Shown here in pieces: positions 26,109-56,097 of a stretch of DNA of 64,000 bases. Every line of letters begins with the position of its first letter. Position 1 is the stretch's first letter. The notes under the pieces were generated by a model. The model was not told the DNA's origin and did not search any database. It saw nothing but the letters and a program-made list of their open reading frames with translations. Origin of the DNA: a virus; IMG/VR virus record IMGVR_UViG_3300046171_000155; one strand, written 5' to 3'. Made by a program: the position numbers and the translations under genes.

Positions 26109-29100
26109 TTATGCAACCCTTGCGTATAGAGTATACGTCTCGACCACATTAGTTAGTGAGTCAGAGATTGTTGCACCTACGTAGTTACCTAGGAACGATC
26201 GTGCGTAGTTACCTACGAAGTCACGGTTATAGTTTCCTTCGAATCCACGAGTATAGTTACCAGTGAAGTCACCTACGTATGTTGAAACACGATTACGTGA
26301 GTAAGCACCTGAGTAAGCAGATGTTCTGATACGTGCGTATGCAGATACGCGGACACGAGAGTAGTTACCTACAAAGTCACGAGAGTAAGTACCAGTGTAC
26401 TCACCTACGAAACCACGGTTGTAGTTACCTACATAGTTCCCTGCGAAGTCACGCGAGTAAGCACCTGTGTATTCACCAACGAATCCACGAGCATAGTTAC
26501 CTACATAATCACCAGCAAATCCGCGAGTGTATGCACCAGTGTATTCACCAGCGAATCCACGTGAGTAAGCACCTGTGTACTCACCTACGAAACCACGGTT
26601 ATAGTTTCCTACGAAGTCTCCGACAAAGTCACGAGCATATGCACCAGTGTACTCACCTGCAAACGTTCTTGCGTAGTTACCTACGAAGTCGCCGGCAAAT
26701 TGACGTGTGTACTGACCTGAGAAAGTACGCGCATAGTTACCAGTGAATGTTGTGTTATACGTACCAGCATATTCACCAACGAAACCTCTTGCGTAGTTAC
26801 CAGTATAGTCACCAGCGAAGTTACGGTTGTAAGTGCCAGAGTAAGCACCAGTGTACTCACCTACGAATCCACGAGAGTAAGCACCAGTGTACTGACCAGA
26901 GAATCCACGAGAGTAGTTACCCACATAGTTTCCACCGAAGTTACGTGCATAGTTACCTACATAGTTACCAGCGAAGTCCCCAACGAAATCACCGACGAAG
27001 TTGCCAGCGAAGTTGCGTGAGTAGTTGCCAGTAAATGTGCGAGAATAGTTACCAGTAAAGTCACCTGCAAAGTTAGTCACACGATCACGAGTGTATGCAG
27101 AAGAACGGTTGCGGACATATGCAGATACACGAGTTCGTGCGTATGCAGAGTAACGAGTGCGTGTTGATGTGCGAGTGTACTCACCAGTAAAGTTACCAGC
27201 AAAGTCACCTGCGAATCCACGCGCGTAGTTACCAACAAAGTCACCGACAAAGTCGCGAGCATAGTTGCCGCTGAAGTTACCTTCGAAGTTAGTTACACGA
27301 TCACGAGTAAAGTCACCAACATAGTTGGTTACACGAGTACGAGCATATGCTATTAGCATAGGTTGCGGTGAAAAGACCTGAGTCCTGTTACGAGTGTATT
27401 CGCCTACGAAGTCGCCTGCATAGGACCCAGTACGTGTGTAGTTACCAGTATTCGTGTATACTGCAGTGCGGTCACGAGTGAATGCACGAGCGTAGTTACC
27501 AGTGTAGTACAATGTACGAGTGTAGTAACCAGTGTTTGTAGAAGTACGTGTAGAAGTACGCGCATAGTTACCTGTATAAGATGCAGCGCGTGTACGAGAG
27601 TAGTTACCCACAAAGTTACCAGCGTAGTTAGTTACACGAGTACGACCGTAGTTACCAGTATAGTTACCTGCGCGAGTACGACCGTAGTTACCTACGAAGT
27701 TTCCAGTATAACCAGTTGCACGAGTTCGTGTGTATGCAGATGCACGATTACGCGTAAAGTTACGCGAGTAAGCGCCTGAGAAGTACTGGGTTCTCGTATA
27801 TGCAGATGCACGATTACGCGTAAAGTTACGCGAGTAAGCGCCTGAGTAGTACTGGTTTCTCGTATAGTTACCTGTATAGTTGCCAGCGTAAGAAAAATTA
27901 TTGTTATAAGAGAACGCATTTTGGGTAATTGAATAAAACACCTGTTGTCCAAGAGCGCTCTGATATGTACCACGCGACCAACTCATTCCGTTACTATTCG
28001 ATAGTGTTGATGCACCTGCGGTACCGATTGCTCTACTAAATCCGTTCCAATAAGCAAAAGCCATATAAGATTCATAATCAATTTCCCAATAAGTGCTATA
28101 TGCAACATATGTTGGTCCCTGTGCAGCCACACTTACTGTTGAGGTTCTAGTAGATGTTCGAGTGGAAGTTCTCGTAAAGGTTCCTACGCGACTATAATCT
28201 CCACCGTATGCACGTGAGTAGTTACCAGCAAAGTTGCGTGAATAAGATGCTGTGCGACTATAATCTCCACCGTATGCGCGTGAATAGTTGCCTGTAAAGT
28301 TACGTGAATAGTTACCTGCGAAGTTTCCAGTATAACCAGTTGCACGAGTTCGAGAATAGTTACCTGCATATGAGAATGCGCGGTTACGTGAGTAGTTACC
28401 AGCGAAGTTGCCTTCAAAGTTAGTAACGCGATCACGAGAGTAGTTACCTACATATGATGCAGCACGGTTACGAGTATAGTTACCTACGAAGTCACCTGCG
28501 TAGTATAGAGTACGAGTATATGATGGCGTAGTTGCATATGCGGCAGAATAGTTACGAGCATAGTTGCCTACGAAGTTACCAGTGTAGTACAATGTACGCG
28601 TATAGTTCAATGTACGAGTTGAAGTACGTGTTGAAGTACGCGCATAGTTACCAGTAAAGTCACCAGTGTAGTTGCCAGCATAGTTACGAGCATAGTTTCC
28701 TACGAAATCGCCAGTAAATGTAGTTGCATAGTTACCTACAAAGTTTCCGGCATAGTTAGTAACACGTAGTCGGGTAAAGTTGCCGACATAGTTAGTAACG
28801 CGTGTACGAGCATAAGCACTGTAACGAGTACGAGTAGATGTACGAGTTGAAACACGAGCATAGTTACCGACATAGTTGCCAGCAAAACCACGTGAGTAGT
28901 TACCTACAAAGTTACGTGCATAGTTGCCTTGGAAAGAACGCGAGTAGTTTCCTACGAAGTTACCAGCAAAGTTGGTTACACGGTTACGAGTATATGTTGA
29001 TACACGTGCACGAGAATAAACACCAGCAAAGTTGGTTACACGATCACGAGTGTAGTTAGTTACACGGGTGCGTGTGTAATCTGCAGAGTATGCAGAGACG

Positions 29101-30650
29101 CGTGTACGAGTTGAGGTACGAGCATACGCAGAAACACGGTTACGCGAGTAAGTTCCCGCATAAGCAGAAACACGGTTACGTGAGTAAGTGCCTGAGTAAG
29201 TACCTGTGTATGATGAAACGCGTGTGCGAGTATAGTTTGCAGAGTATGAAGAACTGCGTGTACGCGAGTAAGTACCTGCGTATGAAGAGACACGACCACG
29301 AGTGTACGAAGATGCACGACTACGTGAGAATGTTCCGGTGAAGTTAGTCACACGGTTACGAGTGTATGTTGATACACGTGCACGGTTATAAGTTCCTGCG
29401 AAGTAACCAGTAAATGCGGTCAATCGGTTACGAGTATATGATGAAACTCTTGTGCGAGCATATGTGCCCGAGTACGCAGAAGTACGAGTTCGCGAATAAG
29501 TTCCTGAGTAAGCAGAAACGCGAGTACGACCGTAGTTGTCTGAGTAAGACGAATTACGAGTACGCGAGTAAGTACCAGTGTATGAAGATACGCGAGTACG
29601 ACCATAGTCAGCAGCATATGCTGAACTGCGGTTACGTGAGTAAGTACCGTCATAAGTTGAAGTACGCGTACGAGCATAATTACCTTCAAATCCACGAGTA
29701 TAGTTACCAGTGAAGTCACGCGTATATGCACCAGTGTAATCCCCCACGAAAGTTCGTGAGAAAGTGTTGACACTGTTGCGAGTATATGATGAAATGCGGT
29801 CACGACTATATGCAGAAATACGAGTACGAGCATACGAAGAAACACGGTTACGAGTGTAATCGGTATCTATGATTGTGCGTCGTGAGTTCTCTGCACTACC
29901 ACGAGCATGCCATGTTCCTGGCAAGATAGGTGCACCCTGAGCAGAAGATCTTAACTGATAAGATCCAATTGCGCCTGGGACCGATCGTAATGTCTTAGCT
30001 CGTTGACCTAGAGTAAAAGACATTTGACCGTTGGTCATCTCTTTGAAACCATCAAAGGATGAACCATCATAACAGATGGCGACCGGACGTTCTTCATCAG
30101 GTGCTATGTATGAACCGTCTTTTTGATAAATGTGGTAAGCTGTTGTTGTGCCGTCACCAAGTGTATCGGTGAAGACATTAGAAATAGCAACCTTATAATC
30201 AGGACTTGGTGGAATAGAAGATAGTCTATAAATTCCATTCCATTGGTTTGTTTCCATTGTGCTTAATGCACGAGTTACAAGGAGGTCTAGATCACCATCC
30301 GTCATTTCATAGAAACCCGGATTGTCACCTAGCTCGTAATAACCAACAGGACGTACAAAATTTTCTCCAGACTCATCAGCAGTACCGCCTACTTGCTTTA
30401 GCGTAGTAGTTACGGTGGTACTAGTGATGTTAGATGCAGGGTGTGTTCCTGCCACTTCATTGTAGTATGTATCTACAAATGAACCAATATTAACACCATC
30501 AGTAAGACTGAGGTTGCCTGTGTCACTAGCAGCGGCCGCTGTTAGTGCTTCAGATACGGCATACGCAAGATATTCTTCTTGCGAAGGCGTAAATTCCTGT
30601 AAGTCACCATTAGCATTTTGAATTTTTAGTGGAATACTAGATGTTGACAC
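26109..30650 (-). CDS. Giant tetrapeptide-repeat virion protein A (1513 aa): globular base, two arms of about 570 aa and a central tip domain
   Basis: 4-residue periodicity (xRxR, xSxY, xGxY, xRxF) over about 1150 aa; own late promoter and terminator. Confidence 0.75.
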   Translation of the reverse strand: MSTSSIPLKIQNANGDLQEFTPSQEEYLAYAVSEALTAAAASDTGNLSLTDGVNIGSFVDTYYNEVAGTHPASNITSTTVTTTLKQVGGTADESGENFVRPVGYYELGDNPGFYEMTDGDLDLLVTRALSTMETNQWNGIYRLSSIPPSPDYKVAISNVFTDTLGDGTTTAYHIYQKDGSYIAPDEERPVAICYDGSSFDGFKEMTNGQMSFTLGQRAKTLRSVPGAIGSYQLRSSAQGAPILPGTWHARGSAENSRRTIIDTDYTRNRVSSYARTRISAYSRDRISSYTRNSVNTFSRTFVGDYTGAYTRDFTGNYTRGFEGNYARTRTSTYDGTYSRNRSSAYAADYGRTRVSSYTGTYSRTRNSSYSDNYGRTRVSAYSGTYSRTRTSAYSGTYARTRVSSYTRNRLTAFTGYFAGTYNRARVSTYTRNRVTNFTGTFSRSRASSYTRGRVSSYAGTYSRTRSSSYSANYTRTRVSSYTGTYSGTYSRNRVSAYAGTYSRNRVSAYARTSTRTRVSAYSADYTRTRVTNYTRDRVTNFAGVYSRARVSTYTRNRVTNFAGNFVGNYSRSFQGNYARNFVGNYSRGFAGNYVGNYARVSTRTSTRTRYSAYARTRVTNYVGNFTRLRVTNYAGNFVGNYATTFTGDFVGNYARNYAGNYTGDFTGNYARTSTRTSTRTLNYTRTLYYTGNFVGNYARNYSAAYATTPSYTRTLYYAGDFVGNYTRNRAASYVGNYSRDRVTNFEGNFAGNYSRNRAFSYAGNYSRTRATGYTGNFAGNYSRNFTGNYSRAYGGDYSRTASYSRNFAGNYSRAYGGDYSRVGTFTRTSTRTSTRTSTVSVAAQGPTYVAYSTYWEIDYESYMAFAYWNGFSRAIGTAGASTLSNSNGMSWSRGTYQSALGQQVFYSITQNAFSYNNNFSYAGNYTGNYTRNQYYSGAYSRNFTRNRASAYTRTQYFSGAYSRNFTRNRASAYTRTRATGYTGNFVGNYGRTRAGNYTGNYGRTRVTNYAGNFVGNYSRTRAASYTGNYARTSTRTSTNTGYYTRTLYYTGNYARAFTRDRTAVYTNTGNYTRTGSYAGDFVGEYTRNRTQVFSPQPMLIAYARTRVTNYVGDFTRDRVTNFEGNFSGNYARDFVGDFVGNYARGFAGDFAGNFTGEYTRTSTRTRYSAYARTRVSAYVRNRSSAYTRDRVTNFAGDFTGNYSRTFTGNYSRNFAGNFVGDFVGDFAGNYVGNYARNFGGNYVGNYSRGFSGQYTGAYSRGFVGEYTGAYSGTYNRNFAGDYTGNYARGFVGEYAGTYNTTFTGNYARTFSGQYTRQFAGDFVGNYARTFAGEYTGAYARDFVGDFVGNYNRGFVGEYTGAYSRGFAGEYTGAYTRGFAGDYVGNYARGFVGEYTGAYSRDFAGNYVGNYNRGFVGEYTGTYSRDFVGNYSRVRVSAYARIRTSAYSGAYSRNRVSTYVGDFTGNYTRGFEGNYNRDFVGNYARSFLGNYVGATISDSLTNVVETYTLYARVA

Positions 30651-30718: not shown

Positions 30719-30743
30719 TAAAAAATCCCCTAAGAGTTAGGGG
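30719..30743 (-). terminator. Terminator overlapping the chaperone stop codon
   Basis: CCCCTAA-CTC-TTAGGGG followed by A and a T-run. Confidence 0.6.
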
Positions 30744-31215
30744 TTGTAGGCCAATTTACTTCCGCGACGGAAAGTATCGCTCCTAAATTATCTGTAACAT
30801 CTCTTAACGATTGACGGTAATTTTTCCATCCTATTCGTTGTTCTTCAGTCAAAGGACTGTCCGCCACTTGAGTCCAATCTGTTAATGACAATTTTCTATT
30901 TCTTTCTACCCTGATATCGTTCAGTAAATCTTCTCGGTTAAACTCCCATCCACCCAGTTCATTGCTCCAAGTGGCATGCCTATTAGGCGGACTACCAATA
31001 AAAATAAATTCTCCATCCGATGGAACATACCAATAATAACTCATAAAGTGACGAAGATCTTCGCACCCTGCAGGGACTCTATCTTCTGTTATGTGAAGTA
31101 TTAACTCTTTTCCATCTTCAGAGACACCGGCTGGATCTATTTTAAAAGTAGGGTATGAAATCCTATTTATTTTACCAGACACTTTATCTACGTAGACGAT
31201 GTATTTCAATTCCAT
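30730..31215 (-). CDS. Tail fibre assembly chaperone
   Basis: IRVERNRKLSLTDWTQVADSPL...WKNYRQSLRDVT...VNWPTTP. Confidence 0.85.
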   Translation of the reverse strand: MELKYIVYVDKVSGKINRISYPTFKIDPAGVSEDGKELILHITEDRVPAGCEDLRHFMSYYWYVPSDGEFIFIGSPPNRHATWSNELGGWEFNREDLLNDIRVERNRKLSLTDWTQVADSPLTEEQRIGWKNYRQSLRDVTDNLGAILSVAEVNWPTTPNS

Positions 31216-31261: not shown

Positions 31262-34200
31262 TCACTCAAGTCCAACATTTTCAGAAGTAAATGTTGTAGT
31301 AAATGTTGGGGTGTATGTTGGGGTGAATGTTGGAGTATATGTTGGGGTATATGTTGGTGTTGTAGAATCTGTTGATGTGCTTGACACCTTAGTGACTGTG
31401 TACTCTCCTGAGTTCAACCATTGACTTCCATTGTAGAAACCAATAGTGTATTGTTTTGTTTGTCCTTCTGCAGGTACATCTGAAACAGTAACGGTTTGAG
31501 CACCATTAGCGTTCTGTATAGAGAATGATTGAAGGAGAGTTAAGTTGTTATTATAAATTCGACCTTGAACTGACTGACCCCCTTGCGTATTAAAATCAAA
31601 CTCTACCGTATGTGTCGTCGCGCTATGGTGTACAACATTTTGAGTCGTTGATAAAATAGTGCCGATGTCATTATCATACAAAGTAAATGACTTTGAGTCA
31701 AGTACTCGCACATTAGATGATCCTCTAGGTTCAGACATTAAAGATGCGGTATTGCCTGTTCTCAATTCAGCAACGAATGTTTCTCCTTGCCAACCAATTT
31801 CAGAATCTTCTTGACTTCCTGTTCCAGTGCGTGTATAATTGCCTATGTAGTTTCCTGTATAGCCTCCTACAAATGTTCTCTCGTAAGCACCACCAAATGT
31901 ATTTGCATAGGAGCTAGATCTAGCGCGAGTACTGGTTCTATTATAAGTGCCTTCGTAAGCGCCAGTATATTCACCAACAAACCCTCTACTATAATTTTCT
32001 TCAAAAGGTCTTGTATAATCACGAGAATAATTTCCAGTATATTCACCGGCGTAGTTTCCAGAATAATTACCAGTGTAGTTAGAACCTATTGATCTAGCGA
32101 ACTCAACAGTATAGTTTCCGATGAATGGTGTTAAAAAATCACCTGTATAGTTACCAGCGAAGTTGCCTACATACTCTCCAACATACCCACGTGCATAGTT
32201 TCCAGTGTAATTGCCTACAAGGAAGTCTCTAGTAAAATATCCAGCCCCTTGTGTAACTCTTGTGCGAGTAAATTCTCTGCTATAATTTCCGCCGAAGTTG
32301 CGTGAATAGTTCCCTACGAAGTTTGCAGTATAGTTTCCAAAATAGTTTCTGCTATAATTACCAACAAAGGTGCCAGCAAAATCACCGACATAATCTCCAA
32401 CATACCCACGCGCATATTCACCTACAAACCCAGTACTATAGGACCTAGTATATGCCGAATCACGACTTCTAGAGTAATCTGTTATTCTTGTTCTGTTATA
32501 ATTGCCCGCAAAGTTGCCCACAGAAGTGCGTGAATAGTTCCCCTCAAAAGTAGAAGTTCTTATGAGAATGAAGTTTCTACTATAGTATAACGTTCTAGTG
32601 AAGTTGCGTGAATAGTTGATAGCATAATCTATGGATCTTGTATAATTACCTGTAAAGTTTCCAGCAAACCCTCTTGAATAATTACCTACATAATAAAGGG
32701 TTCTACTATAACTAGAGGACCTTACTCTAGCATACCCATCATGCGGAACCTCATATTCTATAGGATCACCATTTATATCAGTCTCAGGTAATGTAGATAT
32801 TCTGGTAGATGCATAGTATCCAGTTCCAGTTCTTGTGCGAGTGTATCCACGAATAAAGTCCCTCGCATAGTTAAAGTCTCGCGAGTAAGTGCCTGTAAAC
32901 GGAGCAGTAAATTCACTGGAATATGTCGCGCCGTTGGTAAATGATTGAGTACGATCCCTAGTAAAATTACGCGTATATTCAGTAGTTGTTCCAGTAGGGG
33001 CCGCGGTAGAACTTGTGGTTCCTTGACCAACTTCATAATACTTGGTGCCACCTATTGTAGCGATTAAATCACCTCTCCAGTAATAAATGTTATCGTTACC
33101 TTTTAACTTAGTTGGGCCGTTGCCATAATCCCGCGTGTCATTAAGTACTTTCGTTGTTCCGTTCCATTTAATATTGGTGACATGTACTGTGATCGAAAAC
33201 CCTTCGGAATTACTAGTATTAGTATCAACTGAGAAGAAAGTGTTGTTTGCAGTGTAAAAATATCCATCGCCAATGGTACGTGTATATCCACGAGAATAGT
33301 TACCAGTAAAAGTACTAATTCTTCCTGCTGCAGCGAAGTCGCCAACATAGTTGCCTGTGTAAGTGCCTTCGTAACCAACAGTTCTCGTAAAGTTGCGTGT
33401 GAATCCACGAGAATAGTTTCCTATATAATATAAGGTTCTTGTAGAGTCGGCTGGGAAATAAACTCCAGTAAATTCTCCGACATAAGAACCGACTGTTGTT
33501 CTGGTGCGACTATAGGCAGAATATCGCGTACGGGTAGATGTGCGAGTAAATTCTACTGCTGGGTTTACATAATTCCCAAGATAATTTCTAGCGTATGACC
33601 CCACCCTAGTATAGTCACCAGCATAGTTACCAGTGTAACTTGCGCTAGTCGTTCTCGCATAATCACCTACAAAATTCGTAACTCTGGTTCGCCCGTAGTT
33701 GCCAACAAAGTTCCCAGTAAAAGTTGCAGTATATGTACTAGAGTAATACTCGTTACGAGTCACGCCTCTAGTGCGACTATATGTAGAGTAACGTGTGCGA
33801 CTATATGTTACCGTACTTGGCATTCTAAAATAATACGCAACATCACCAGTGGGAAAGTCTCTAGAGTACTCTTGTGGTCCAGTTAATATAGCATTTCTTG
33901 TAAACTCTCTAGCGTAATATGCTGTATAGGATACAGTACGATCTCTGGTATACGCAGAAACTCTCGACCTTGTATAGTTTCTACTGTAGTAGCCAATATA
34001 TGATGCACCATAACTACGAGCATACGATGAAGTTCGGGTAGCTTGTCTGCTTCGGTTGTAGGTAGAGTAACGTGTACGACTATATGTCACCGTACTTGGC
34101 ATTCTAAAATAATACGCAACATCACCATTGGGAAGGTTTCTAGAGTACTCTTGTATTTCAGTTAATGTAGAATTTCTTGTGAAGTTTCCTGTGTAGGTCC

Positions 34201-35575
34201 CCAAGAACTCTCTAGAGTAATTCGTAGTATCTGTTCTGCTGTATCCCGCTACAAATGCAGAGGTTCTGGTTCTTGAATATGTCGCAGAAAAAGATCGCGC
34301 GTACCCTTCAACTCTTGTTCTATCATAAGTACTTGTTCTTGTTCGAGCGTATGCTCCAGAATACTCTCCGGTATATTCTCCAACATAATTACGAGCAAAA
34401 TCTCTTGAGAACGACCCTGCTACACTTCGAGAGTATGAAGATATTCTATTTCTTGAATATGTGCCTATGTAATCAGCAACATTGGTATATGAGACTGATC
34501 TCGATGAGGTGGGAGAAGTTGTTGTGAAGGTTGCGCTTTTAGTATCACCAAAGAAAGCTACTCTGTCCGACCCTAAGTCGTTCCCAGAACCAGAAGTTTG
34601 AAACACTCGAACATGATATGCACCTTCTTCAGAAGTATTCGCATTGAATGTAATAGAACTTCCTTCTGTAATTGCAGATCCTGATTGATATGTCAGAGAT
34701 CCAGTAGCGTTTTGATCTCCGGAACCGTCACCATCTGAGTCAACATCACCGCCACCACCAGGAGGTTCATAGGTACCAGACCCACCAGTTCTCAAGGTTG
34801 CGCCTAGAAGACTGCCTGTAGGATAAACTTTGAGTCTCTGGTCGCCATTTTGTAAATCCACAATAGCATCATAAGCTGAAGCTAATGTGCTACCAACCCT
34901 TAGACCAAAAAAGTCCGATCCGTGTGAGTTTTGAGCAGACCATTCAATATTTACATATTCGTTCGTATCTTTGGTCATTACATACGAGCTAGATTCTGTC
35001 CCTACTTCATTACTAAGAAGAGGTGGTAACCATGAAACGATATCAAAGTTAAAGTTTGTTCCTAATGCGCGACTATCAAACGCGACTTCTCCATAGCTTG
35101 TGACAATTCGCAGACCTCGGTCTATACTAGTATCATAACGGCTTGGGTCGGCCATAATGGTAGATGCTTTTCTGACAACAAAATAATCAAACTCTGTTTG
35201 CCAGTCATCATAAACTGCGAGTTTCCAATTTTCAAATTGTCCGTCTATTTGAGGGGTGTATGCTTCTATGCCTGTTCCAGTAAAGGTTACCGTTTCCCCA
35301 GAGACATTCATTTTGTGAAGATAAGGTGTATCAAAAGTGACCGTCATGATATCATCTGAAGGCACTTGAATATCAACAGAACTCCAGTCACCGCCACCAG
35401 GCGCGCTAGGGTTCTTAACAAATATCATATCACTTTCTAATAGACCGCCTGGAAGTGTGAACGAGTGTGCACGACCAGCATCTGTGACAATCAGATTAAG
35501 AATGTCCAGTTCTGTGTCCGATACAGTAAATGTTCCACCGGCATCATTGCCTATTATCTTTAATCCATATGACAT
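31262..35575 (-). CDS. Giant tetrapeptide-repeat virion protein B (1437 aa); repeat arms inserted within a Calx-beta/Ig-like domain
   Basis: MSYGL N-terminal domain; same xRxR/xGxY/xRxF units as protein A; C-terminal TPTY repeats. Confidence 0.72.
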   Translation of the reverse strand: MSYGLKIIGNDAGGTFTVSDTELDILNLIVTDAGRAHSFTLPGGLLESDMIFVKNPSAPGGGDWSSVDIQVPSDDIMTVTFDTPYLHKMNVSGETVTFTGTGIEAYTPQIDGQFENWKLAVYDDWQTEFDYFVVRKASTIMADPSRYDTSIDRGLRIVTSYGEVAFDSRALGTNFNFDIVSWLPPLLSNEVGTESSSYVMTKDTNEYVNIEWSAQNSHGSDFFGLRVGSTLASAYDAIVDLQNGDQRLKVYPTGSLLGATLRTGGSGTYEPPGGGGDVDSDGDGSGDQNATGSLTYQSGSAITEGSSITFNANTSEEGAYHVRVFQTSGSGNDLGSDRVAFFGDTKSATFTTTSPTSSRSVSYTNVADYIGTYSRNRISSYSRSVAGSFSRDFARNYVGEYTGEYSGAYARTRTSTYDRTRVEGYARSFSATYSRTRTSAFVAGYSRTDTTNYSREFLGTYTGNFTRNSTLTEIQEYSRNLPNGDVAYYFRMPSTVTYSRTRYSTYNRSRQATRTSSYARSYGASYIGYYSRNYTRSRVSAYTRDRTVSYTAYYAREFTRNAILTGPQEYSRDFPTGDVAYYFRMPSTVTYSRTRYSTYSRTRGVTRNEYYSSTYTATFTGNFVGNYGRTRVTNFVGDYARTTSASYTGNYAGDYTRVGSYARNYLGNYVNPAVEFTRTSTRTRYSAYSRTRTTVGSYVGEFTGVYFPADSTRTLYYIGNYSRGFTRNFTRTVGYEGTYTGNYVGDFAAAGRISTFTGNYSRGYTRTIGDGYFYTANNTFFSVDTNTSNSEGFSITVHVTNIKWNGTTKVLNDTRDYGNGPTKLKGNDNIYYWRGDLIATIGGTKYYEVGQGTTSSTAAPTGTTTEYTRNFTRDRTQSFTNGATYSSEFTAPFTGTYSRDFNYARDFIRGYTRTRTGTGYYASTRISTLPETDINGDPIEYEVPHDGYARVRSSSYSRTLYYVGNYSRGFAGNFTGNYTRSIDYAINYSRNFTRTLYYSRNFILIRTSTFEGNYSRTSVGNFAGNYNRTRITDYSRSRDSAYTRSYSTGFVGEYARGYVGDYVGDFAGTFVGNYSRNYFGNYTANFVGNYSRNFGGNYSREFTRTRVTQGAGYFTRDFLVGNYTGNYARGYVGEYVGNFAGNYTGDFLTPFIGNYTVEFARSIGSNYTGNYSGNYAGEYTGNYSRDYTRPFEENYSRGFVGEYTGAYEGTYNRTSTRARSSSYANTFGGAYERTFVGGYTGNYIGNYTRTGTGSQEDSEIGWQGETFVAELRTGNTASLMSEPRGSSNVRVLDSKSFTLYDNDIGTILSTTQNVVHHSATTHTVEFDFNTQGGQSVQGRIYNNNLTLLQSFSIQNANGAQTVTVSDVPAEGQTKQYTIGFYNGSQWLNSGEYTVTKVSSTSTDSTTPTYTPTYTPTFTPTYTPTFTTTFTSENVGLE

Positions 35576-35886
35576 TATGAAATTCTCAGTGCCATTACAA
35601 TACCACTCTGTGTACCGTAAGAACCACTATTATTTTGTAATTGGAAACCAGTCGAAGTCTTATTAATCACATCTACATATCTAGGGTTGCCCACAAATAC
35701 AATTAATATTTTAGAACCGTCATTGGCATTGGGGCAAGCATATACACTGCTTGTTTGATCTTTAGTCAGACTAAATGAAGAGTATACTTGGATATTAGAT
35801 GTTCGGATCGAATCAGAAAATACTAACTTAGAGGTAGTTGCATCACCATTGATGATTGGTCCATATATTTCTAATCCATACGACAT
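35575..35886 (-). CDS. Small tail-tip/adaptor protein resembling the N-terminus of protein B
   Basis: MSYGLEIYG...LVFSDSIR compared with MSYGLKIIG...FTVSDTEL. Confidence 0.55.
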   Translation of the reverse strand: MSYGLEIYGPIINGDATTSKLVFSDSIRTSNIQVYSSFSLTKDQTSSVYACPNANDGSKILIVFVGNPRYVDVINKTSTGFQLQNNSGSYGTQSGIVMALRIS

Positions 35887-35896
35887 GACGAATTCC

Positions 35897-36292
35897 TTAT
35901 GGTGATTCAGGCCAAACTACATCTTCTAAACTAGAATATTGGTTTGTGATATCCCTCAGTTCTTGACGATAGATTGCCCATATCTCACGATCGTCATCGT
36001 CTAGACCATTATCGTCCATACGAGTCCAATCTGTTTCAGAGAGTAACTGATTACGTTTTTTTCGTAAATTTTCTATACGGATTTTTTCTACAATTTCATC
36101 AGGAAATGGTAATACTAATTGTGCAACAATATCTTTTGATTCGATATACTTATCAACAAGTAAACAAAAATTAATGTCGTATTCTTCTTGAGTAGGAACA
36201 TATAATTTCCAATCATTAGACGGCAATATATTCCCATCAAAAGATTGAGGAGATCCTATTGGGTTTCCGTTTTCTATTCTTATAAATTGCAT
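35897..36292 (-). CDS. Tail fibre assembly chaperone (second copy)
   Basis: LRKKRNQLLSETDWT...WAIYRQELRDIT...VVWPESP. Confidence 0.85.
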   Translation of the reverse strand: MQFIRIENGNPIGSPQSFDGNILPSNDWKLYVPTQEEYDINFCLLVDKYIESKDIVAQLVLPFPDEIVEKIRIENLRKKRNQLLSETDWTRMDDNGLDDDDREIWAIYRQELRDITNQYSSLEDVVWPESP

Positions 36293-40312: not shown

Positions 40313-40538
40313 TCACTTCCCCTGATAAACTCATAAGCAGTTCTTTGATCTGTCGCATGTCATCTTTTAATCCCTTCACTTCTTCTGTAAGAGAGTTAAT
40401 GTGATCTTGCCTTTCTCGTTGTACTCTGCTTTGGTTCCTCGCGTTTTGTATTTCGGATTTGTTTGTATTTAGTATGGCACCAGTACGACTATCTCGCACT
40501 AGGTTCGCATGCCCCTTTACTTTTACATGACTGTTCAT
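40305..40538 (-). CDS. Conserved small protein of marine T4-like phages
   Basis: VKVKGHANLVRDSRTGAILNTN followed by a C-terminal coiled coil. Confidence 0.65.
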   Translation of the reverse strand: MNSHVKVKGHANLVRDSRTGAILNTNKSEIQNARNQSRVQRERQDHINSLTEEVKGLKDDMRQIKELLMSLSGEVNE

Positions 40539-43500
40539 TAGGTCAGAGTCCTAGAGATACGATAGAACCAAGTGGTGATGTCCATTCCATTTGACGGAAT
40601 ATACTGCTCTAGATCGCCCCTCGTATAAGTGTACCCGTCATTAGCAACAATAGAGACAATCTGTTCCTGATCTAAACCAGCGATTTGCGATGTATTAAAC
40701 TGAACTATTGTATCGTTCCAGTTTAGAATTACGCCGTTAATAGGTTCTCCTTCGCTAGATGTAAATTGTACGATTGAGAAGTAATACTGTGGCGAAACTC
40801 GCGAGAACAGATTAGTCTCTGGTTCAGGTTCCGGCTCAGGTTCTGGTTCTGGTTCAGGTTCCGGCTCAGGTTCTGGTTCTGGTTCTGGTTGTGGTTCCGG
40901 CTCAGGTTGTGGTTCTGGCTCTGGCTCCGGTTCTGGTTCAGGTTCTGGTTCAGGTTCTGGACTTGGAGCAGGAGTATCTACTGGATTCAAGTTTAAGTCA
41001 AACAACTCTCCAAACTTCTGTAGACCGCTAGCAGTGATCAATGAAATCGCACGTAGGTCTGTGATCATTGGTGACTTAGATGAGTTATTAGACTTCATCA
41101 CAATCAAAACTTGGAATACAGTAAATGGTTCTGCGTCTAGTGTGTACTCATAGTCACGGAAAATGTCTGGGTTCTCATCAGTTGGCATTGGAGTATCAAT
41201 TTCGATCTTTGCCCACAACGCATCTGCAAATGCGTTTTCATCTAGAGAAGTACGTGCGTACACTTCAAACTCTGCACCACGTGCACGGTTTGCAGCGAAG
41301 ATAATCTTCAGTCCTTCTGACAACTCATCAATAATCACAGGTGTTGTGATGTGTTGAGTTGCGTTTGAGTTATCGATCACATTCTCTAGAGCAATAACTG
41401 AGACTCGCTGTAGATCAATCACAGGCGAAACTTTAGAGTCGCCAGTCGAAAGGTTCAATGCAAACTCTAGTGTCTTCGCAGTAGAGTTTTGTGATGTCGC
41501 AACTACATTCGGATGAGTGTTGACATTTAGATCATTGAGTGATACAGTTGAAGTCGGATCTTTCTCGTAATTAAGAGGTGTTATCTTACGGTCTGTGCCG
41601 TAAGACGCGCCAACTGTTTTAGTTACAGTCGCTTGAATTGATGTAGAGTTAGGTGTGAATGACTGAACTTGTGGAATGTACTGATCAAACATTACTTGCT
41701 GAGTTGCAGTTACGTTATTACCGCCACCCTGCGCAGAACCTGTCGCATTCGTCGCCACTTGAATTGTATATCCGTCCCATGAAGGGAAATTAACTGCAAA
41801 TGATCCGTTTAAGTCACTATCTGTAAGTCCGCCCACGACACTTGATACATCTGCGAATGTAACTGTATCACCTTCAGTGAACCCGTGACCTTGGTGTTGT
41901 ACCTTAACTATATCTGATCCTGCAGTTGTCTCAAATGGACTCTGGATCAATGTGACCTTTGGAAGTTCTGCGTTCTCTAGGTGTAGTACACCATCAAATT
42001 CAAACTCTGCACGTTCTAGTTCAAACATCAAATCCTTAGTTTGATCTGGCGTCCAAGTCGAACCGTTCTGAGACATAAACAATGAACCCAGTGTTGGTTG
42101 ACGTGACACTCGCTCTTCACGAGATGGACCTAGGACGAACTCATATGTCTGAGCAGTGTATACATTATAGTCTACTGATTCTGCAAGCAACACTATAGCA
42201 TATTCTTCGCCTGGAGTCAAGTAAATTGGTTGATCAAATTCAACAACTGTCGGCCGAGTTCTGACTGTAGCGATATCAGTCTCTTCAGTAAGTGGCGTTA
42301 CTGGAATGTTAGCCGGATCTACGAACTTAACTGATCCTGGAACTAGACGATTCGTAGGAACGCCATTCTCTACAGCACGGATTTGAACCTGCATAGGAAT
42401 GATAGAGTCTTTACTCTCTACATAGACACGCGCTTTAGTGATAAAGATACCGTTTGGATTCTCTACTTGATCAACGAAGAATGTCTGAGCAAGAGGATCT
42501 CGCCAGTAAGTTGTTTCAATAACTTCTGTTGTGCGTATTGTGCGTTGGACTGTTTGAATCGTACCGACCGAAGTGTATCCGGCACGGCTGATAGAAGTAG
42601 CGCCACCATCGTTATTCAAGTTGATGTCAAGCAGTTTAAATTCTTGACGACCCGTACGGAAACTAATGTCTGGAGTGTTCGGCAAGAAGAACGAACCGAT
42701 CAATTCACCCTTACTGTCTGTGACTAGATCACCTTTGCCACCTAGTGCAGATGGGTACGAAGTCGCGTTCGCATATTCGTTACCATACTCTGTCGGATCG
42801 TCCGAGAAGTTTACATAAGTAGACTCTGGACGTACCCAATCAGATACATTCTTGTTTCCGAAATAAGCGAACATACGGGTGTTAGGTCGTAGTCCCTGAA
42901 CTCGGAAACTAATCTTGCGCGAGCGCATGAACGGAATAATTTCTACATCCAAGATGCGTTCGCCAATAAATTCTTGAATCGTCTTTGATGTAACTCTAGA
43001 ACGAATTCTTGCATTAGGTCGAGAGAAGAAAGTAGGTAGGTATGTGTTGATACGACGTACAACATTCTGCATAATGTCTGGTAGTCGCTTCACTTCTACC
43101 CATTCGTCTGAAGACGGAGACAACGTCATATGTCCGTTCGATGTGATTACCGCAAACGGGTTGATATTGTCTGTGCCTGTCGCCAGAACCTGAGATACAA
43201 ACTTTGTGCTTGTATGCGGAAGAGTAACGATGTCGCTCTTCTTAGAAATATTGTTGTTTAGGTTCGAAGGGTTGTACGCTAATCGTATCGAGTTTTCAAC
43301 GAACGATGGGCGCAGTAGACCTTCTGGATCAACCGAAGCGCGATACGCTGGGTTGTGTACGTCACAGAAATTCAGTGTGCTGAAGTTGTCTGCGATGAAC
43401 CCTGCCTTAGTACGAGGGTTGCCGTTCGCATCTAAAACTTGCAAGACGTTTGTGTTAGTCTCAAGGAAACTTAGCGCAGTCAATTCATATAGAGTCTCTA

Positions 43501-45976
43501 CACGATCAGACAGCTTAGAGATGTCTTTCATCGTGAATCGACGATTAGGGATGAACATGCTTACGACATCTGAACGGTCAAATGTATATGCGTTCAATGT
43601 GAACTTGTATAGAGGCAATGCGCCCGCAGGTACTTCTGGTTCGCGAGGATCAATAGCAGGTTGTCCGCGAACGACTTGTAGCTCGCCTAACCCTATACCC
43701 CCACGACTGTCTGTCGCGTTCACTACAAGAACATCTGTACGTGGTAAGTAGTAGTCTACCTCATCAATTATAATCGAAGAGGCGTTCTGTGGTAACTCTG
43801 AGATGTCGAAAGGTATTTGTGTTCCGCTAGTAACTCGATCTGGCCTGAAGTCTAACACATCACGTAGAGAGATTGTCTCTCCAGTGCTGAGTGTTGTATG
43901 TCCTGGGATTTCGTTATAATCTACTCCGGAATACGAACTTGCCGCGAAGAACTTGCCACTATTTGTGCGGGCGTAGTAAGTAAAGTTGACTTGTAATTCT
44001 TCACCGCCGGTTGGTAATGTGTACCCTTCTTTTACAATAGCATACGCAATACCATAATAGTTGTCACGTTGACCACCATCAAGTTTAAACTGGAATGTGA
44101 TGTCTTCCCACTCCGTGGCCGCAGGCGGTTTAATCTTTACAGAATCGATCGATATGACATCGACAGCACTTAAATTCACAGAAGTTGCTGCATCAGGTCC
44201 GGACAAAAATACTGAAGTTGTCCCTGAAGTTGCCGTCTTTGCCTTAGGTGCAGATGTTACTTCATCATAGTAAGCGATTGTATATGTTTTAGTATCATCT
44301 AAAATTGGATCTGAATATGTAAATGTGCCGTCGTTGTTTGGTGTAGGCGTGATTGCAAGAATAGGTCCATTTATTTCTGAAATGACCCAACTTCCCTCTT
44401 CAACGCCCCCAACTGTTATTGAATTGCCAACAGGTTGCTCCGCCTTAAACTTTTGGGCGGTGTAAGTAACATTTTGAATACTAGACTGCTCTGGCGACTT
44501 GTACGGTAACGCAAACAATAAATCGTTATTAGATGTACCATACAATGTGGTATCAAATGTTAGAGGTGTTTGGTCGGGATCTGTATCAAACGATAATGGC
44601 CTTAATGGAATATCATTGTTAAACTCATCTCTCAGCGTAGTAACTGCAGAGAAAGGAAAACGTGCATTTCCGCCCGAAGGAATATAGTCCATTTTAATAT
44701 CAAAGAGATATAGACGATATCCAACAGCATCGCGTTGAATGCCTCTAATATGAGCGGAACCTACGGATTGACCAACATCTTGATAAACACCAAGTAAATC
44801 TACTCTGCCAAATGTGTCTAGTTGACCAAACCCTTCAGTACGATCTGGGTCAATGTATACCCAGTTACCATATACCGCCGGCACTGCTTCTAGTTCTTGT
44901 GTACGTGTATCACGCGCCTTCGGTACAGTGATGTCTGTAGTACCGACCTCTAAACGATATCCGTCTACATACGCGACACCCTCTGTCACATCTAGATTCA
45001 GACTTGTTTCATCGTCGTCTAGGTCTTCAAAGATTGCTCTGAATTCTTCTACAACATAATCACCAGACTCTTCTTTTGTACGTAATGCAAGTAGGTCATT
45101 GACTCGGTTGTATGCGTCAAATGTACTAATTTCACGAGTAATAACACCATCAACAATACGAGCAGCGAAGACAAAGTTCTGTTCTGTCGATACTTGATCT
45201 CGTGTTGTAGGAATTAGTTTGATCTGATATCGGTGTGCGCCTGGAGAGGTTAGGTTAGGAACCTCGCCTTGATTGTCGTGTAGGTCTTCGTCTTCGCTTT
45301 CTGTAACGATATTCTGTTCTACGACGAAACCGAAGTCTGCGTCTGGAGTGCTGCTGTACTTATCTATGAATGCACTTCCGCCACTTAGATAAACGAAGTG
45401 CCCTTGTACAAAGAAATCACCAGAAGCAAAGTATGCCTTTGTTCCTTTGCCAGAACCTCTGATTACTATTGGATCGCCATTTGAATCGATAGATGTGATG
45501 TCGTCAGCAACAACCATTGAAGGAACTGTCGCACCGTCAACACGAACAATCGTATCACCCTGCTCAACACGAGGAGCAATAGTTGCGTCTATCACTGCAA
45601 TTGTATTTGTGTATTGGACGTATAACGTGATAGGGTCACTACCAGTAGAATTGTACATCTCTAAGACTTTAAACTCGACCGCTCCGTTTGTTAGCAGTTC
45701 GCCAACAAGAGATTCGTCGTAAACGCTTGTTGAAGTTAGTCGTATATACTCTAGACCATTATCAACCGTCGCACCGCCTGGATTTACCATCGCACCTTCT
45801 TTGAAGATATTCTGACCAAATCGTGCGATCTCTTCGTGAATAATGCGTTGAGATTCTGTTAGTTCTCGCGCTTGTAGTGCGCGACCTGAATTGTACAATA
45901 CACGATGATACCCATCTTCCTTATCATAGAAGTCTCGGTATGTTTCGCGAAAAACTTTATTGGTATAATCAGTCAT
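40538..45976 (-). CDS. Large baseplate-associated structural protein (DUF4815/VrlC-like) with a C-terminal Pro-Glu stalk and tip domain
   Basis: Y.DF...[54 protein letters not shown]. Confidence 0.8.
40818..40962 (-). repeat. (Pro-Glu)n coding tandem repeat
   Basis: 6-bp unit CCA/CCT/CCG-GAA/GAG repeated about 24 times. Confidence 0.95.
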
Positions 45977-45984
45977 CGTGTATC

Positions 45985-47340
45985 CTATATTGTAATAACG
46001 ACTTTAATGTCTTCTTGTTGTTCTGCGTCTCTTATGATTCGGTAGCGGTTTTCAATGTATAGAACATCTCCGCTATGTCTATCTATCTCTGGCTGATCAG
46101 TCAGTCCTGTGACGGTCTGTTGTAGCGATGTGCCGACTTGCTCAACAATCTCGCCTACTCCAAACGGTACAAACCCTGTACTCTCGTTCTGGTGATAGTA
46201 AACAAAATTATTGACTGACTCATTGACATATGCCTCGGCACCGTTAGTAAGTCCCCTGACCAAACTTCCAGAAGAGAAAGGTGAGTTTGCATCTAAGTGC
46301 AACACAGGAAGTACTTTTCCAGAAACTTCTGTGTATGGTGTACCGTCTGGTTTAGTTGGGTCTTGAAGAACTCCAATCTGACGGAACTCATTCTCTACGA
46401 TAAATGTATTGCCTTCTGTACCGTCTGGTTTGATATTCAACATAACCGAACTTGTTTTTAAATCATCTACTGGATCATTACCCATGTGTCGAGTAATCAC
46501 TGCGCGAGTTTCGCATTCAGTAGTAGGTGTTCCGTCTAGGACAAACGATGCACGAGTATAACCCGAACCGTAGTTTGTCATCGTAATCTTTACGATCTCG
46601 CCACCGACCATAGTCGCAACCGCTGTTGCTCCATTTCCGTCACCAACTACTGTGACAGTAGGTGTCGTCGTATAACCAGACCCTTTACTAGTCACTTCAC
46701 AACGAATGATCTCACCCTTGACTGCGGCATTGATTACATTCATCTGCAAGTCTTCAATCGCAGAGTTGTCACAGTTAGATACTGGACCTGTCAGACTGAC
46801 TGGTACATGGTTGCTAGAAAGGTATTGGAAGATTTGTTGCGGAGTTAACTTGTATAGGAACTTCCATACATAACCGTCCGATGTTCGGAACGGTCGCGTG
46901 TAGTCTACATTGAGTTCGCAATAACTAGGCTTGACAGTAGAAGTAACTATGTTACCATCACCATCACGACCCGTCTCTAGACAGACATAGACCTCTTTTG
47001 CGTCATTTAAAACATAGAATGCGGTATCTTCTTCAGCATTCTTAACATCCGACCACTCATGATATATCGCGTCTGACACCCAGTTGTTTCGTTTCGCGAC
47101 GATGATCGCACCTTCTACTTTCTTGATAGACTGTAGATTGTGACGAAACTCACTCTCTTCTAGGTTACCGTCTGCTGGCAAATAAGGATAGTCAACGATA
47201 GTTTCTCCATCAACTACTGCGGTTGGGAAAACATCTGACTTACCAATACCGATATAAAATTCTTTTTCTGTACCAATAACATCTGCGAGAAACTGTCTCG
47301 CTAAAGTTTGGTTAAGTGTTTGTCTTACTGTTGCTGGCAT
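45985..47340 (-). CDS. gp8: Baseplate wedge subunit gp8
   Basis: FYVLN...[35 protein letters not shown]...QQEDIKVVI. Confidence 0.85.
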
Positions 47341-53999: not shown

Positions 54000-54971
54000 T
54001 TATTGCGCCTCTCTTATTACGCCATAGTATTTGGGGTCATTTCCATAAGTGTTTTGTAATGCGCCACGAGTATAAGTTCTTCCATCACTGCCTGTAACAC
54101 TTGTAGGAATATCGTCAAATGAAGGGTAGAAAATTTGATACTTAGATTGATTGTTCCAAACGATGATCACGCTGATCTCTGTTGTACCGTCATCCGGATC
54201 ATCATACTCTGACCACTCATATCTCGGTTCATCTTCACTCCAATGATCAACGCCATCAGGCAAATCTGGTTCTGGTTCTGGTTCTGGTTCTGGCACATGA
54301 GGTGGGTGCGTGTATTCAGATGTTACCCGAATAGGTGGAGAAGATAGATCAGAAAGCGCATATATGTATATCGCACCGACCTTTCCGTCTAGATGCTCAT
54401 CCGGCGCAGTGATGTATAGTCTATTGCCGCTTATGGTTACATCGTGACCGAAAGAATCTTCTCCTGAAGAAGTAGGCTCTGCGTAGTCTTGGTCCCAATC
54501 ATGATCGCGATTGATTCCTAGACCTGAGAGTGTTGTCCACTTAGGAGAGATCAAAGAGTACGAAGGTTTGTATATTGCGTGATCGTATAGAGTGCCTTCG
54601 TCACCTGCCTGAATATCAGACTCTTTATAAATGTCTACAACAGAAACCGTCGTCCATGGAATTGTTGTTGTCATTGACCCTTTTCTCTTGACGATAATAA
54701 AATTGTCGTCTACTGGTTCCGGTTCTGGTTGAGGTTCTGGTTCTGGTTCTGGTTGAGGTTCTGGTTCCGGTTCTGGCTCAGGTTCTGGTTCTGGCTCTGG
54801 TTGTGGTTCAGGTTCGGGTTCTGGTCCTGGTGGATCTACAATAATGCCACCATCGAGATCTTTGATGAAATACAATGTGTTTTCATCTTTCGATGTTATC
54901 GCATCATACTCAGACTGTGTACCAACCCATACGTTGATTGCCTCACCTGAGTTTTGATCTATAATACTCAT
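54000..54971 (-). CDS. Decorating protein: short fibre-anchor motif, Pro-Glu stalks, FG-GAP-like repeat and tip domain
   Basis: [23 protein letters not shown]; two (PE)n runs; [17 protein letters not shown]...GAIYIY. Confidence 0.6.
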
Positions 54972-54972
54972 G

Positions 54973-56097
54973 TTAGTTTCCTACGATTATTTGATCGTTA
55001 CTATATTCTATAAACGTTATGTTTTCTTCGCCTAGTTTTATTGTTTCAATTCTTGTGGTGCCGAAGAATACATTGAACCCTAGTTCTTGGTCTTGTTTGT
55101 CTACAGGGTCTACAGGGTCCGGCACTGGATCTGGCTGAACTCTTCCAACTCTCGATCTGTCAATAAGACTTACATCGATTGTAGTTTCTGCAAAGTCAGC
55201 ATCTTTACAATCAAACACATCTGATAGGTATATATCGTCTTGTCCTACCAAGCAGGATCCTGGCGCTTGTGCTGCAGCAAGGGTGCCATACAAGTCATTC
55301 ATTCTTTGCAGCGTCATACCCTCAAACAACCGCAGCGTTACTTCTGAACTTAGAATGAAAGGCTCGTCCGCTGGATCAGTCTCTCGCATCGTCATCAAGT
55401 CATACTGCGGTGTAGTTGAGGCATGTGCCTCTGTCTCAAGGAACAGGTACGGAGTCTCTAATGGATCTGTACCTTCACCTACAGTATCAAACTTCCCGAC
55501 ACCCTTTGTCGCAACATCCGCAGCAAGATAGAATCCTGCAGGGTGTACGAACTTCTTATAGAGAGAGTCGTAGTCGGCAGAAGACAAACCTGTTTTCAAA
55601 AGAATTGAAAAGATTTGATATCTGCGGTTGTCTGTGATAAACTTGACAGACTCAGGTCCGATCAACGAATTTCCTGGTTTGTCGTTTAAGTAGAAGATGT
55701 TCTCTTTCGGATAAAAGACTTCAACATCTTCATTAAAGAACATCTTGAAAAATTGTTCAGCAGAATTCTGTGTACCCTTAGTACGATAGAAATTTGCTAA
55801 AAGTCTTGCAGAGAGTCTCGCACGTTCTTCGCGAATCTCTTCTGGGAATATTGTATGATCGACACCATTGCCGATCTCTCTTAGTAAATAGTCTAATGCG
55901 TCTAGTTCTGTTGTAGTGATGTCACGAAGGTCAAACAACTCTTTGATCTTTGCTTCATACGAAATAGAATCGTCTTCTTTCGTATACGCGTAGTACCTCT
56001 CTAGAAACTTGACTAGTAAAGGATACTCAGAATCAAAAAAGTCAGGCAGTAATTCTGATACCTGACTATTATGTAGTTTGACATTCGCTCGTTGCAT
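54973..56097 (-). CDS. Baseplate wedge initiator, gp7-like
   Basis: [25 protein letters not shown]...FFKMFF, VHPAG; follows gene 6. Confidence 0.7.

Follow-up and report, generated by a model that had tools for sequence, protein, structure and literature searches.

Protein B (P0001) is the 1437-residue product of a gene on the minus strand, at 31262-35575, of a 64,000-nucleotide stretch of viral DNA (IMG/VR record IMGVR_UViG_3300046171_000155; the whole of this stretch is the window referred to below). It contains a small β-sandwich domain that is split, at a single insertion point, by two long repeat arms with an island domain between them. The arms correspond to one another in the antiparallel sense, they gain and lose equal lengths at mirrored positions among homologues, and the island is homologous to the terminal domains of two other proteins encoded in the window. 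In a T4-like, Kyanoviridae-related marine phage, protein B very probably serves as a fold-back fibre or adhesin of the virion, with a stalk that arises from the split domain and arms that run antiparallel. This stalk seems to take up about 800 residues of a single chain, out and back, and the receptor-binding part would lie in mid-sequence rather than at the C terminus. An earlier, sequence-only reading had placed the arrangement at 31680-34700, or residues ~292-1299, a span that indeed takes in both flanks of the split domain, both arms and the island. The arms, which it put at about 400 and 385 residues, measure 407 and 383 residues round an island of 94.

The split base domain

Residues 285-1335 of protein B were modelled with AlphaFold2 from a 32-sequence alignment, which gave predicted local distance difference test (pLDDT) values of 64-90 and 85-87 for the two flanks of the arms, termed flank N and flank C, and of 61-79 for the island. 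In an exhaustive structural comparison, 90-100 residues of this model, spanning model positions 4 to 1020, superpose on single sandwich domains of ~100 residues. These include domain 3 of HAP2 (7lr3_D; Z 9.1, root-mean-square deviation (rmsd) 2.5 Å, 97 residues aligned) and the macroglobulin (MG) domains of complement (Z 7.5-8.0). Since this superposition on single domains takes in both flanks, the model has them packed into one domain.

The same domain occurs in nature without the arms. Two proteins, P0125 (635 residues) and P0124 (682 residues), were found by searching shorter proteins with flank C and the adjoining immunoglobulin-like (Ig-like) domain as query, and both carry the domain in one piece ('...TKTHTVPTFNDSVKELGWQGEEF...'). 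The halves that stand apart in protein B are contiguous in them, as '...TKTHTVPTFND-SVKELGWQGEEFTATLRTG...FTLYDNDG'. With the uninterrupted domain as query, HMMER run over the full set of 1.8 billion representatives returned 19 proteins, most of which have the domain unsplit; the uninterrupted homologues are P0124, P0125, P0126-P0135, P0137, P0139 and P0141. The likeness of P0125 to protein B extends to its N-terminal domain (35% identity, E 2e-36) and to the open reading frame (ORF) upstream of it, which matches the 103-residue ORF upstream of protein B (42%, E 1e-22) and has the same start/stop overlap. By these matches P0125 is an armless counterpart of protein B in the same genomic setting. 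The proposal that a single domain is divided between the two flanks is thus borne out both by their packing in the AlphaFold2 model and by natural uninterrupted homologues, namely P0125, P0124 and about 12 others.

In protein B the insertion comes after the strand '...ATFTTT', in the loop that leads to the strand 'EIGWQGETFVAEL'. Because both ends of the stalk join a single loop of a small domain that is found uninterrupted in relatives, the two arm ends must meet, and the single insertion point forces an out-and-back topology, as had been argued from the sequence; the equal-length, compensating indels (insertions or deletions) described below agree with it. For this topology protein B provides the cleanest proof. 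The flank motifs quoted in the sequence-only reading do occur and are the most conserved parts of the B family, and flank C has invariant columns of E, G, E, L, R, G, F, D, D and G.

The sequence-only reading had also likened the flanks to a Calx-beta domain, and this resemblance holds at the level of the fold. The uninterrupted domain, modelled with AlphaFold2 from the family alignment (pLDDT 85.9, predicted template modelling score 0.79), superposes on solved Calx-beta sandwiches. Its best Foldseek match in the PDB is NCX1 CBD1 (2dpk, E 8e-5, template modelling (TM) score 0.58; 3gin), and other top matches are whole NCX1, CBD2 (2qvm), the Calx-beta domain of integrin beta4 (3h6a) and CALX CBD1. 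Ranks 1-4, 6, 7 and 9 fall to NCX1 CBD1/CBD2 and integrin beta4 (E 8e-5 to 7e-4), and the Calx-beta matches lie between E 8e-5 and 1e-3, with TM scores of 0.47-0.58. In VIA-align the domain aligns to CALX CBD1 (3ead_A) with Z 8.3 and rmsd 2.9 over 97 residues; generic MG sandwiches reach Z 9-10, as high as Calx-beta or above it. With phmmer, residues 300-416 of P0125 match end to end all 12 Calx-beta repeats of P0140, at 8-12 bits each, and the whole-protein value for P0140 is E 2.3e-5 in 1.8 billion sequences. Comparison by hhalign of the domain family with the P0140 repeats gave 79% (E 1.6e-5, 83 columns), aligning 'TEG' and 'ND..sE..GEsFt..L' with 'AEG' and 'NDTTDES-DETFTVTL'.

The Pfam Calx-beta model (PF03160; gathering score 27 bits) gave no match at E up to 10 to the flanks of protein B, P0124 or P0125; P0140, the positive control, returned 12 Pfam Calx-beta domains at 572 bits. 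When each flank and the unsplit domain were used as profile queries against the PDB, only weak Ig-like matches appeared and no Calx-beta. Because the Pfam model gives no match, 'Calx-beta-like' is the right strength of description: in our reading the base domain of protein B is a divergent Calx-beta-like sandwich that falls outside the Pfam family as defined. It has in common with Calx-beta domains, among them those of CALX (3e9t, 3ead), the sandwich fold, the TEG start, the pattern 'ND..sE..GE.F..L' and a terminal acidic 'D.D'. The invariant E, E and D.D columns of flank C sit at places corresponding to the Calx-beta acidic cluster, and the insertion site is, by the numbering of NCX1 CBD1, what we take to be the E-F loop, at that end of the domain which is acidic and binds calcium in NCX1. 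That the root of the stalk might likewise bind calcium is a speculation. To our knowledge, no known Calx-beta domain carries an 885-residue loop insertion.

Correspondence between the two arms

Both arms are composed of short units, either tetrads of the form [A/V/T/S]-[G/R]-[N/D/E/T]-[Y/F] or octads of the form x-R-x-R-x-[S/T]-x-[Y/F]. In protein B, 94 tetrads and 20 octads account for 68% of the arm residues, with a position-specific composition like that of protein A (P0002), the product of the next large gene downstream. The 4- and 8-residue units are irregularly mixed, and autocorrelation of the arms gives a period of 4 with harmonics at 8 and 12, no other length being preferred. Near the base, the N arm is richer in xRxRxSxY octads and the C arm in xGxY tetrads. 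The pattern is conserved position by position in homologues down to 30% identity. Three non-repeat segments, termed knuckles, interrupt it: the N arm has two of them, the C arm one. All three contain 'LP(N/T/E)xD'-type motifs, and the two in the N arm are near-identical, forming a 150-nucleotide direct DNA repeat of 85% identity. The knuckles may be bulges or hinges.

The rules by which one arm faces the other are plainest in protein A, where a register of i+j=1755 is gapless over ~560 pairs. In this register Tyr stands opposite Tyr 44 times against 9.8 expected, Arg opposite Gly 31 times against 12.7, Arg opposite Phe 27 times against 7.0, and Ser opposite Arg 21 times against 8.3. A symmetric log-odds pair matrix was taken from the protein A counts alone and applied unchanged to protein B. 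Gapped global alignment of the B N arm with the reversed C arm scored 41.5, compared with 2.1 for the unreversed, parallel alignment; 60 unit-shuffled C arms scored 20.2 +/- 7.2 with a maximum of 39.0, so that none reached the observed value. The first 118 residues from the base pair without a gap, each aromatic opposite an aromatic, and the gaps needed further out sit at the three knuckles. Among the base-proximal pairs, SRNRISSY lies opposite reversed YERTFVGG, ARTRTSTY opposite reversed YSRGFVGE, and DRTRVEGY opposite reversed YTRPFEEN, which reproduces the R:G, R:F, S:R and Y:Y pairs of protein A. An octad in protein B is thereby placed opposite two tetrads, 'xRxF xGxY' or 'xGxY xGxY', in agreement with the sequence-only reading. 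In the B family, the same matrix scored antiparallel above parallel in 31/31 members and above all 12 unit shuffles in 28/31.

That protein B obeys the code of protein A less strictly, as the sequence-only reading put it, is a fair description, given a z of ~3 for B alone, the three knuckles and the gaps away from the base. Of the three pairings it quoted, ARTR-TSTY facing SRGF-VGEY is exact; the other two are off by about one unit. Simpler scores were less informative. A gapless scan for R opposite G produced no single register peak in either protein. A smoothed R-minus-G track correlated at r -0.52 at the expected register of protein A and was uninformative for protein B, owing to the indels; with -0.48 from the parallel control, it was dropped as a test. 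When the pair matrix was cross-validated inside protein A, this worked in one direction only. No DNA inverted repeat was found behind the symmetry of the arms.

Length variation links the arms independently of the matrix. A word-indexed search yielded 35 full-length B relatives (30-99% identity), all built in the same five parts. Across 32 homologues the N arm ranges from 251 to 448 residues and the C arm from 221 to 465, with a correlation of r = 0.92. Pairwise comparison of related members identified at least eight independent events in which both arms gained or lost the same number of residues, at sites mirrored with respect to the base. Given as residues from the base in the N arm and C arm, respectively, these are 22 residues between the B clade and P0006-P0012 (30 / 35), 52 between P0018 and P0020 (47 / 50), 38 between P0025 and P0030 (183 / 159), 16 between P0026 and P0029 (331 / 312), 36 between P0026 and P0028 (157 / 124) and 18 between P0036 and P0037 (216 / 200). 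Comparison of P0014 with P0015 adds two more, 18 residues in each arm at 316 / 315, and 14+4 residues in the N arm (234-243) matched by 18 in the C arm (208). Eight such independent events have no explanation unless residues equally far from the base in the two arms are structural neighbours. Their lengths are all even, as would be required if the facing of strand side chains is kept, and are not multiples of one value. A quantum of 22 residues, corresponding to one solenoid coil, was considered and rejected, the indels being of 16, 18, 22, 36, 38 and 52 residues and the arms having no 22-residue periodicity.

The proposed fibre and its alternatives

The island of protein B recurs elsewhere in the same module. 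Its profile matches the island of protein A (hhalign 91%, E 1e-6), the last ~85 residues of a 1812-residue DUF4815 protein (88%) and the last ~70 residues of a 323-residue 'Phage_tail_C' protein that begins with a 'Phage tail tip' motif (92%). By these profile matches, the island domain is apparently a terminal module elsewhere in the same virion, and one small domain would be displayed four times in the virion module, in the islands of proteins A and B and at two C termini. It is also the most variable part of protein B: relative to P0005, which is 77% identical overall, the island has 41% identity and the flanks of the split domain 96%, and among close homologues these flanks stand at 93-96%. 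This divergence is the pattern that would be expected of a host-recognition part, and the island is presumed to be the receptor-binding tip.

The chain of the proposed fibre would begin with an N-terminal domain, the presumed virion anchor, and would then form most of the Calx-beta-like sandwich. Leaving the sandwich by the loop that follows the fifth predicted strand and precedes the 'SEIGWQGETF' strand, it would run out for ~400 residues as an extended strand, make the ~94-residue tip domain, and return antiparallel over ~385 residues to re-enter and complete the sandwich. A side-chain code on one face would keep the register, with Tyr opposite Tyr, Arg opposite Gly or Phe/Tyr, and Ser/Thr opposite Arg, and with each xRxRxSxY octad opposite two tetrads, typically xRxF plus xGxY, or two xGxY. 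The ladder face would thus present a continuous Tyr/Phe-Arg stack in which Gly serves as space-maker. The stalk would be a length-adjustable spacer, altered by equal indels in both arms, and the variable tip would presumably bind the host.

The arms are probably extended β strands, with which the two-residue alternation, the position-specific pattern and the even indels are consistent. Taking 360-380 paired residues at ~0.33 nm each, the stalk would be ~120 nm long, comparable with the T4 long tail fibre and made from one gene. Protein B is likely to reside in the virion and its tip to bind a receptor; its probable function is that of a long-reach adhesin, with length tuned by paired indels and the tip exchanged. 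We further hold it possible, if somewhat tentatively, that the arms represent a new class of fibrous fold and a graftable cassette: a single-chain, two-stranded β zipper of more than 100 nm that has no hydrophobic core and is held by a one-face code.

Several observations weigh against this account. Protein B is known from its sequence, from which both its production and its place in the virion are predicted. AlphaFold2 lends the stalk no support, as it left the arms unpaired at pLDDT ~25 and so gave no stalk model. For protein B taken by itself the code is modest, and column covariation in a 31-sequence alignment is marginal (0.23-0.24 at shift 0/+2, as against ~0.22 at other even shifts). 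Nearly a third of the arm residues (32%) lie outside the 4/8 units, and the non-aromatic face, where small apolar residues alternate with Asn/Asp/Glu, has no obvious core. The arms differ by 24 residues and the three knuckles break the repeat; the arrangement of two knuckles in the N arm and one in the C arm would account for the greater length of the former. Lastly, some larger length differences are unmatched, as between P0013 and P0017 (54 vs 108 residues) and between P0031 and P0036 (96 vs 107).

A homotrimer would follow the same out-and-back path, its three hairpins forming a six-stranded needle in which the N arm pairs also, or instead, with the C arm of a neighbour, as in the needle at the tip of the T4 long tail fibre. 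We regard this as possible but rather doubtful; it concerns the oligomeric state only and overlaps with the explanation preferred here. Phage tail fibres generally assemble as trimers and depend on a chaperone to do so (PMC3004832), a tail-fibre-assembly-chaperone-like gene directly follows that of protein B, and the compensating indels and the code fit a trimer and a single-chain ribbon equally well. Set against these points, the armless relatives (P0125) resemble strings of sandwich domains and not trimeric shafts, the tip homologues behind Pro/Glu-rich linkers in two proteins suggest an autonomous and possibly monomeric module, protein B is without the His-x-His metal motifs of the gp37 type, and neither strand face is clearly hydrophobic. 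All that the code and the equal indels demand is an N arm antiparallel to a C arm, whether or not both belong to one chain, and arms paired head to tail between molecules would give dimers, open polymers or nets. The chance of this is slim: both arm ends lie in the same loop of a small domain, where the intramolecular partner is always nearest, and a swap would part the sandwich halves or need a swapped sandwich too.

It is unlikely, in turn, that each arm is a compact repeat rod, such as a β solenoid with a tyrosine ladder, and that two rods lie side by side and antiparallel with a projection of ~10-15 nm, the mirror correspondence then being one of rod-to-rod packing and not of strand pairing. 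Short repeats rich in Tyr, Gly, Thr and Ser, with aromatic ladders, do form solenoids elsewhere; ice-nucleation proteins have been modelled as a β solenoid with a tyrosine ladder (PMC3196904). AlphaFold2 did draw local hairpins in the N arm, at low confidence. Yet the arms have no fixed coil length, multiples of 4 being about equal in the autocorrelation and the 4/8 units irregularly mixed, and the paired indels take many even sizes (16, 18, 22, 36, 38 and 52) instead of multiples of one coil. The residue-level antiparallel register of protein A, gapless over ~560 residues with Y opposite Y, also speaks against rods. Low AlphaFold2 confidence and biased composition would suit unstructured, low-complexity linkers whose symmetry stems from a history of repeat expansion; this is scarcely credible, given a 4/8 pattern conserved position by position down to 30% identity and antiparallel scores above parallel in every one of 31 members, and it would leave the eight equal, paired indels unexplained.

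Known phage fibres gain length by trimeric β helices, β spirals, coiled coils or strings of domains, and no description of such a fold-back fibre protein was found in the literature. A similar path is that of the gp37 needle of phage T4 (PDB 2XGF), in which, as Bartual et al. in 2010 are said to have described, the chains run to a receptor-binding tip and back, antiparallel, with the terminus proximal. Its arms reportedly have ~50 residues and form a trimer, with iron on His-x-His motifs, that caps a conventional trimeric shaft. The out-and-back path to a distal tip is common to both, but the arms of protein B have ~400 residues and are inserted in a sandwich loop; they contain no gp37-type His-x-His, and there is no sequence similarity between the two proteins. 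The B arms hold a single His, at residue 945 inside the C-arm knuckle, and the sole HH lies in the Ig-like domain. In the streptococcal antigen I/II (A3-V-P1), Larson et al. in 2010 reportedly found two complementary repeat regions that flank a tip adhesin and pair as a long stalk, which holds the tip at a great distance from the anchor. That stalk combines an α helix with a polyproline II helix on a bacterial cell wall, whereas protein B would use two β-type strands on a phage, and the two are without homology. The central sheet of OspA and the G5-E repeats of SasG are long, thin β rods without the usual hydrophobic core and with cross-strand side-chain ladders. They are composed of three-stranded meanders of short strands that stem from repeated small domains, in contrast to one continuous two-stranded hairpin of hundreds of residues with a complementarity code. 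Out-and-back stalks with a tip thus exist in other chemistry, and the construction principle of the stalk may in itself be new.

If the fibre is as proposed, the host-range determinants of an abundant marine phage group would lie in mid-gene, which bears on annotation, and evolution would tune stalk length by paired indels and swap tips as cassettes. Should the zipper also be real, its length would be set digitally by paired, even indels, the module could be grafted, tip domain included, into a loop or onto a terminus of unrelated domains, and protein design would gain a sequence-programmable β zipper for rigid, programmable spacers. For structure prediction, the arms (pLDDT ~25) are a clear AlphaFold2 blind spot.

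Second scaffold and genomic setting

The repeat module had been supposed to be portable, set into two unrelated scaffolds, and its distribution supports this. Among 120 relatives of the module, 35 have the B scaffold, 84 the A scaffold and one neither, and the N domains of proteins A and B have no detectable similarity. Both proteins have the same 4/8-residue units, the antiparallel rules, a homologous tip island and a place in the tail module behind a chaperone gene. In protein A, however, the arms leave an N domain of ~257 residues and return to a closing strand of 12-20 residues, whereas those of protein B are inserted in a loop with further domains after them, and are shorter, less regular and broken by the three knuckles. 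The short closing strand that had been pointed out after the arms of protein A is present and conserved in its family, most A-scaffold relatives having it as ...ETYTLYVRxA.

The A-type proteins range from about 550 residues to the 3347 residues of phage C48C1. This longest homologue (OQ984149, L001:7143-17186) retains the same N domain and closing strand; its first arm has ~1000 residues, and ~1400 residues of non-repeat domains are inserted in the return path. At the other extreme, a 276-residue ORF (P0153, L004:3600-4430) directly behind a Phage_tail_APC chaperone gene consists of the N domain of protein A with the end '...GTAQNTIHVLEETNYTFS', and may be an armless A scaffold, on a contig of only ~4x coverage. 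Weak matches by tblastn to Synechococcus phage S-RIM2 were set aside as (TGNV)n repeats without aromatics, which are of another repeat class and do not belong to this module. The S-RIM2 product in question is a 'structural protein' of 1912 residues (L002:1390-7128) with long runs of TGNV/TGNL/TGDL tetrads, perhaps distantly analogous to the arms of protein B.

The large ORFs of the window, all on the minus strand, make up a T4-like module of baseplate and fibre genes (Table 1). Among cultured phages, the closest relative is C48C1 (Kyanoviridae), whose gp6-like protein is 51% identical. Protein B is thus encoded within a tail/baseplate module and next to a fibre-assembly chaperone-like gene; a second PHROG tail-fibre-assembly match lies at 35897-36292, after an 862-residue protein upstream of protein B. 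Searches of Pfam and PHROGs with the whole of protein B and with each of its parts gave nothing above noise, and a feature search of the ESM Atlas with its N domain and island gave nothing usable.

Table 1. Features of protein B and of the surrounding module, with positions in the window.
Feature	Position	Strand	Remarks
gp6-like wedge protein	56097-57932	minus	
C terminus of 323-residue protein	54000-54362		tip-homologous; behind Pro/Glu-rich linker
gp10-like N terminus	47392-52389	minus	
gp8-like protein	45985-47340	minus	
DUF4815 protein	40538-45976	minus	1812 residues
C terminus of DUF4815 protein	40538-40900		tip-homologous; behind Pro/Glu-rich linker
103-residue ORF at the start of protein B	35575-35886	minus	homologue upstream of armless P0125
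Protein B gene (P0001)	31262-35575	minus	ORF and translation, 1437 residues; 35 full-length homologues of the same architecture
N-terminal domain and Gly/Asp-rich linker	34706-35575	minus	residues 1-290; kept in all B-type relatives and in armless P0125
Flank N, first half of Calx-beta-like sandwich	34481-34705	minus	residues 291-365; about five predicted strands
N arm, proposed outward strand	33260-34480	minus	residues 366-772, 407 residues; unit parse, antiparallel alignment, paired indels
Knuckle 1, N arm	34058-34174	minus	residues 468-506, non-repeat
Knuckle 2, N arm	33779-33895	minus	residues 561-599, non-repeat
Tip island, small β domain	32978-33259	minus	residues 773-866, 94 residues, non-repeat; six predicted strands
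C arm, proposed return strand	31829-32977	minus	residues 867-1249, 383 residues; evidence as for N arm
Knuckle 3, C arm	32711-32800	minus	residues 926-955, non-repeat
Flank C, second half of Calx-beta-like sandwich	31661-31828	minus	residues 1250-1305; SEIGWQGETFVAELR...FTLYDNDxG
Ig-like domain (by sequence pattern)	31382-31660	minus	residues 1306-1398; conserved in all B-type relatives and in P0123-P0125
C-terminal tail	31262-31381	minus	residues 1399-1437; six TPTY/TPTF tetrads and stop, from the sequence
Tail-fibre-assembly-chaperone-like gene	30730-31215	minus	directly downstream of protein B; PHROG 4912 'tail fiber assembly', E 1.4e-16, and five related families
Protein A gene (P0002), other scaffold	26109-30650	minus	next downstream, 1513 residues; gapless register i+j=1755; family classification

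A two-chain prediction, each chain being a base half with 118 arm residues (alignment columns 4-199 and 848-1026), was run without controls; it gave interaction prediction scores from aligned errors (ipSAE) of 0.25 and 0.28 against a mark of 0.32, and counts on neither side of the question. The domain that follows flank C is probably Ig-like, a suggestion that comes from its sequence pattern and not from a confident fold model. The tail behind it has tetrads with an aromatic period equal to that of the arms and with Pro at position 2, and could act as an edge strand for docking onto another protein with tetrads. At the other end of the gene, protein B overlaps the upstream 103-residue ORF by an ATGA-type start/stop overlap. 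This ORF may encode a partner or adaptor of the B N domain; it begins with MSYGLEIYGP, and protein B with MSYGLKIIGN.

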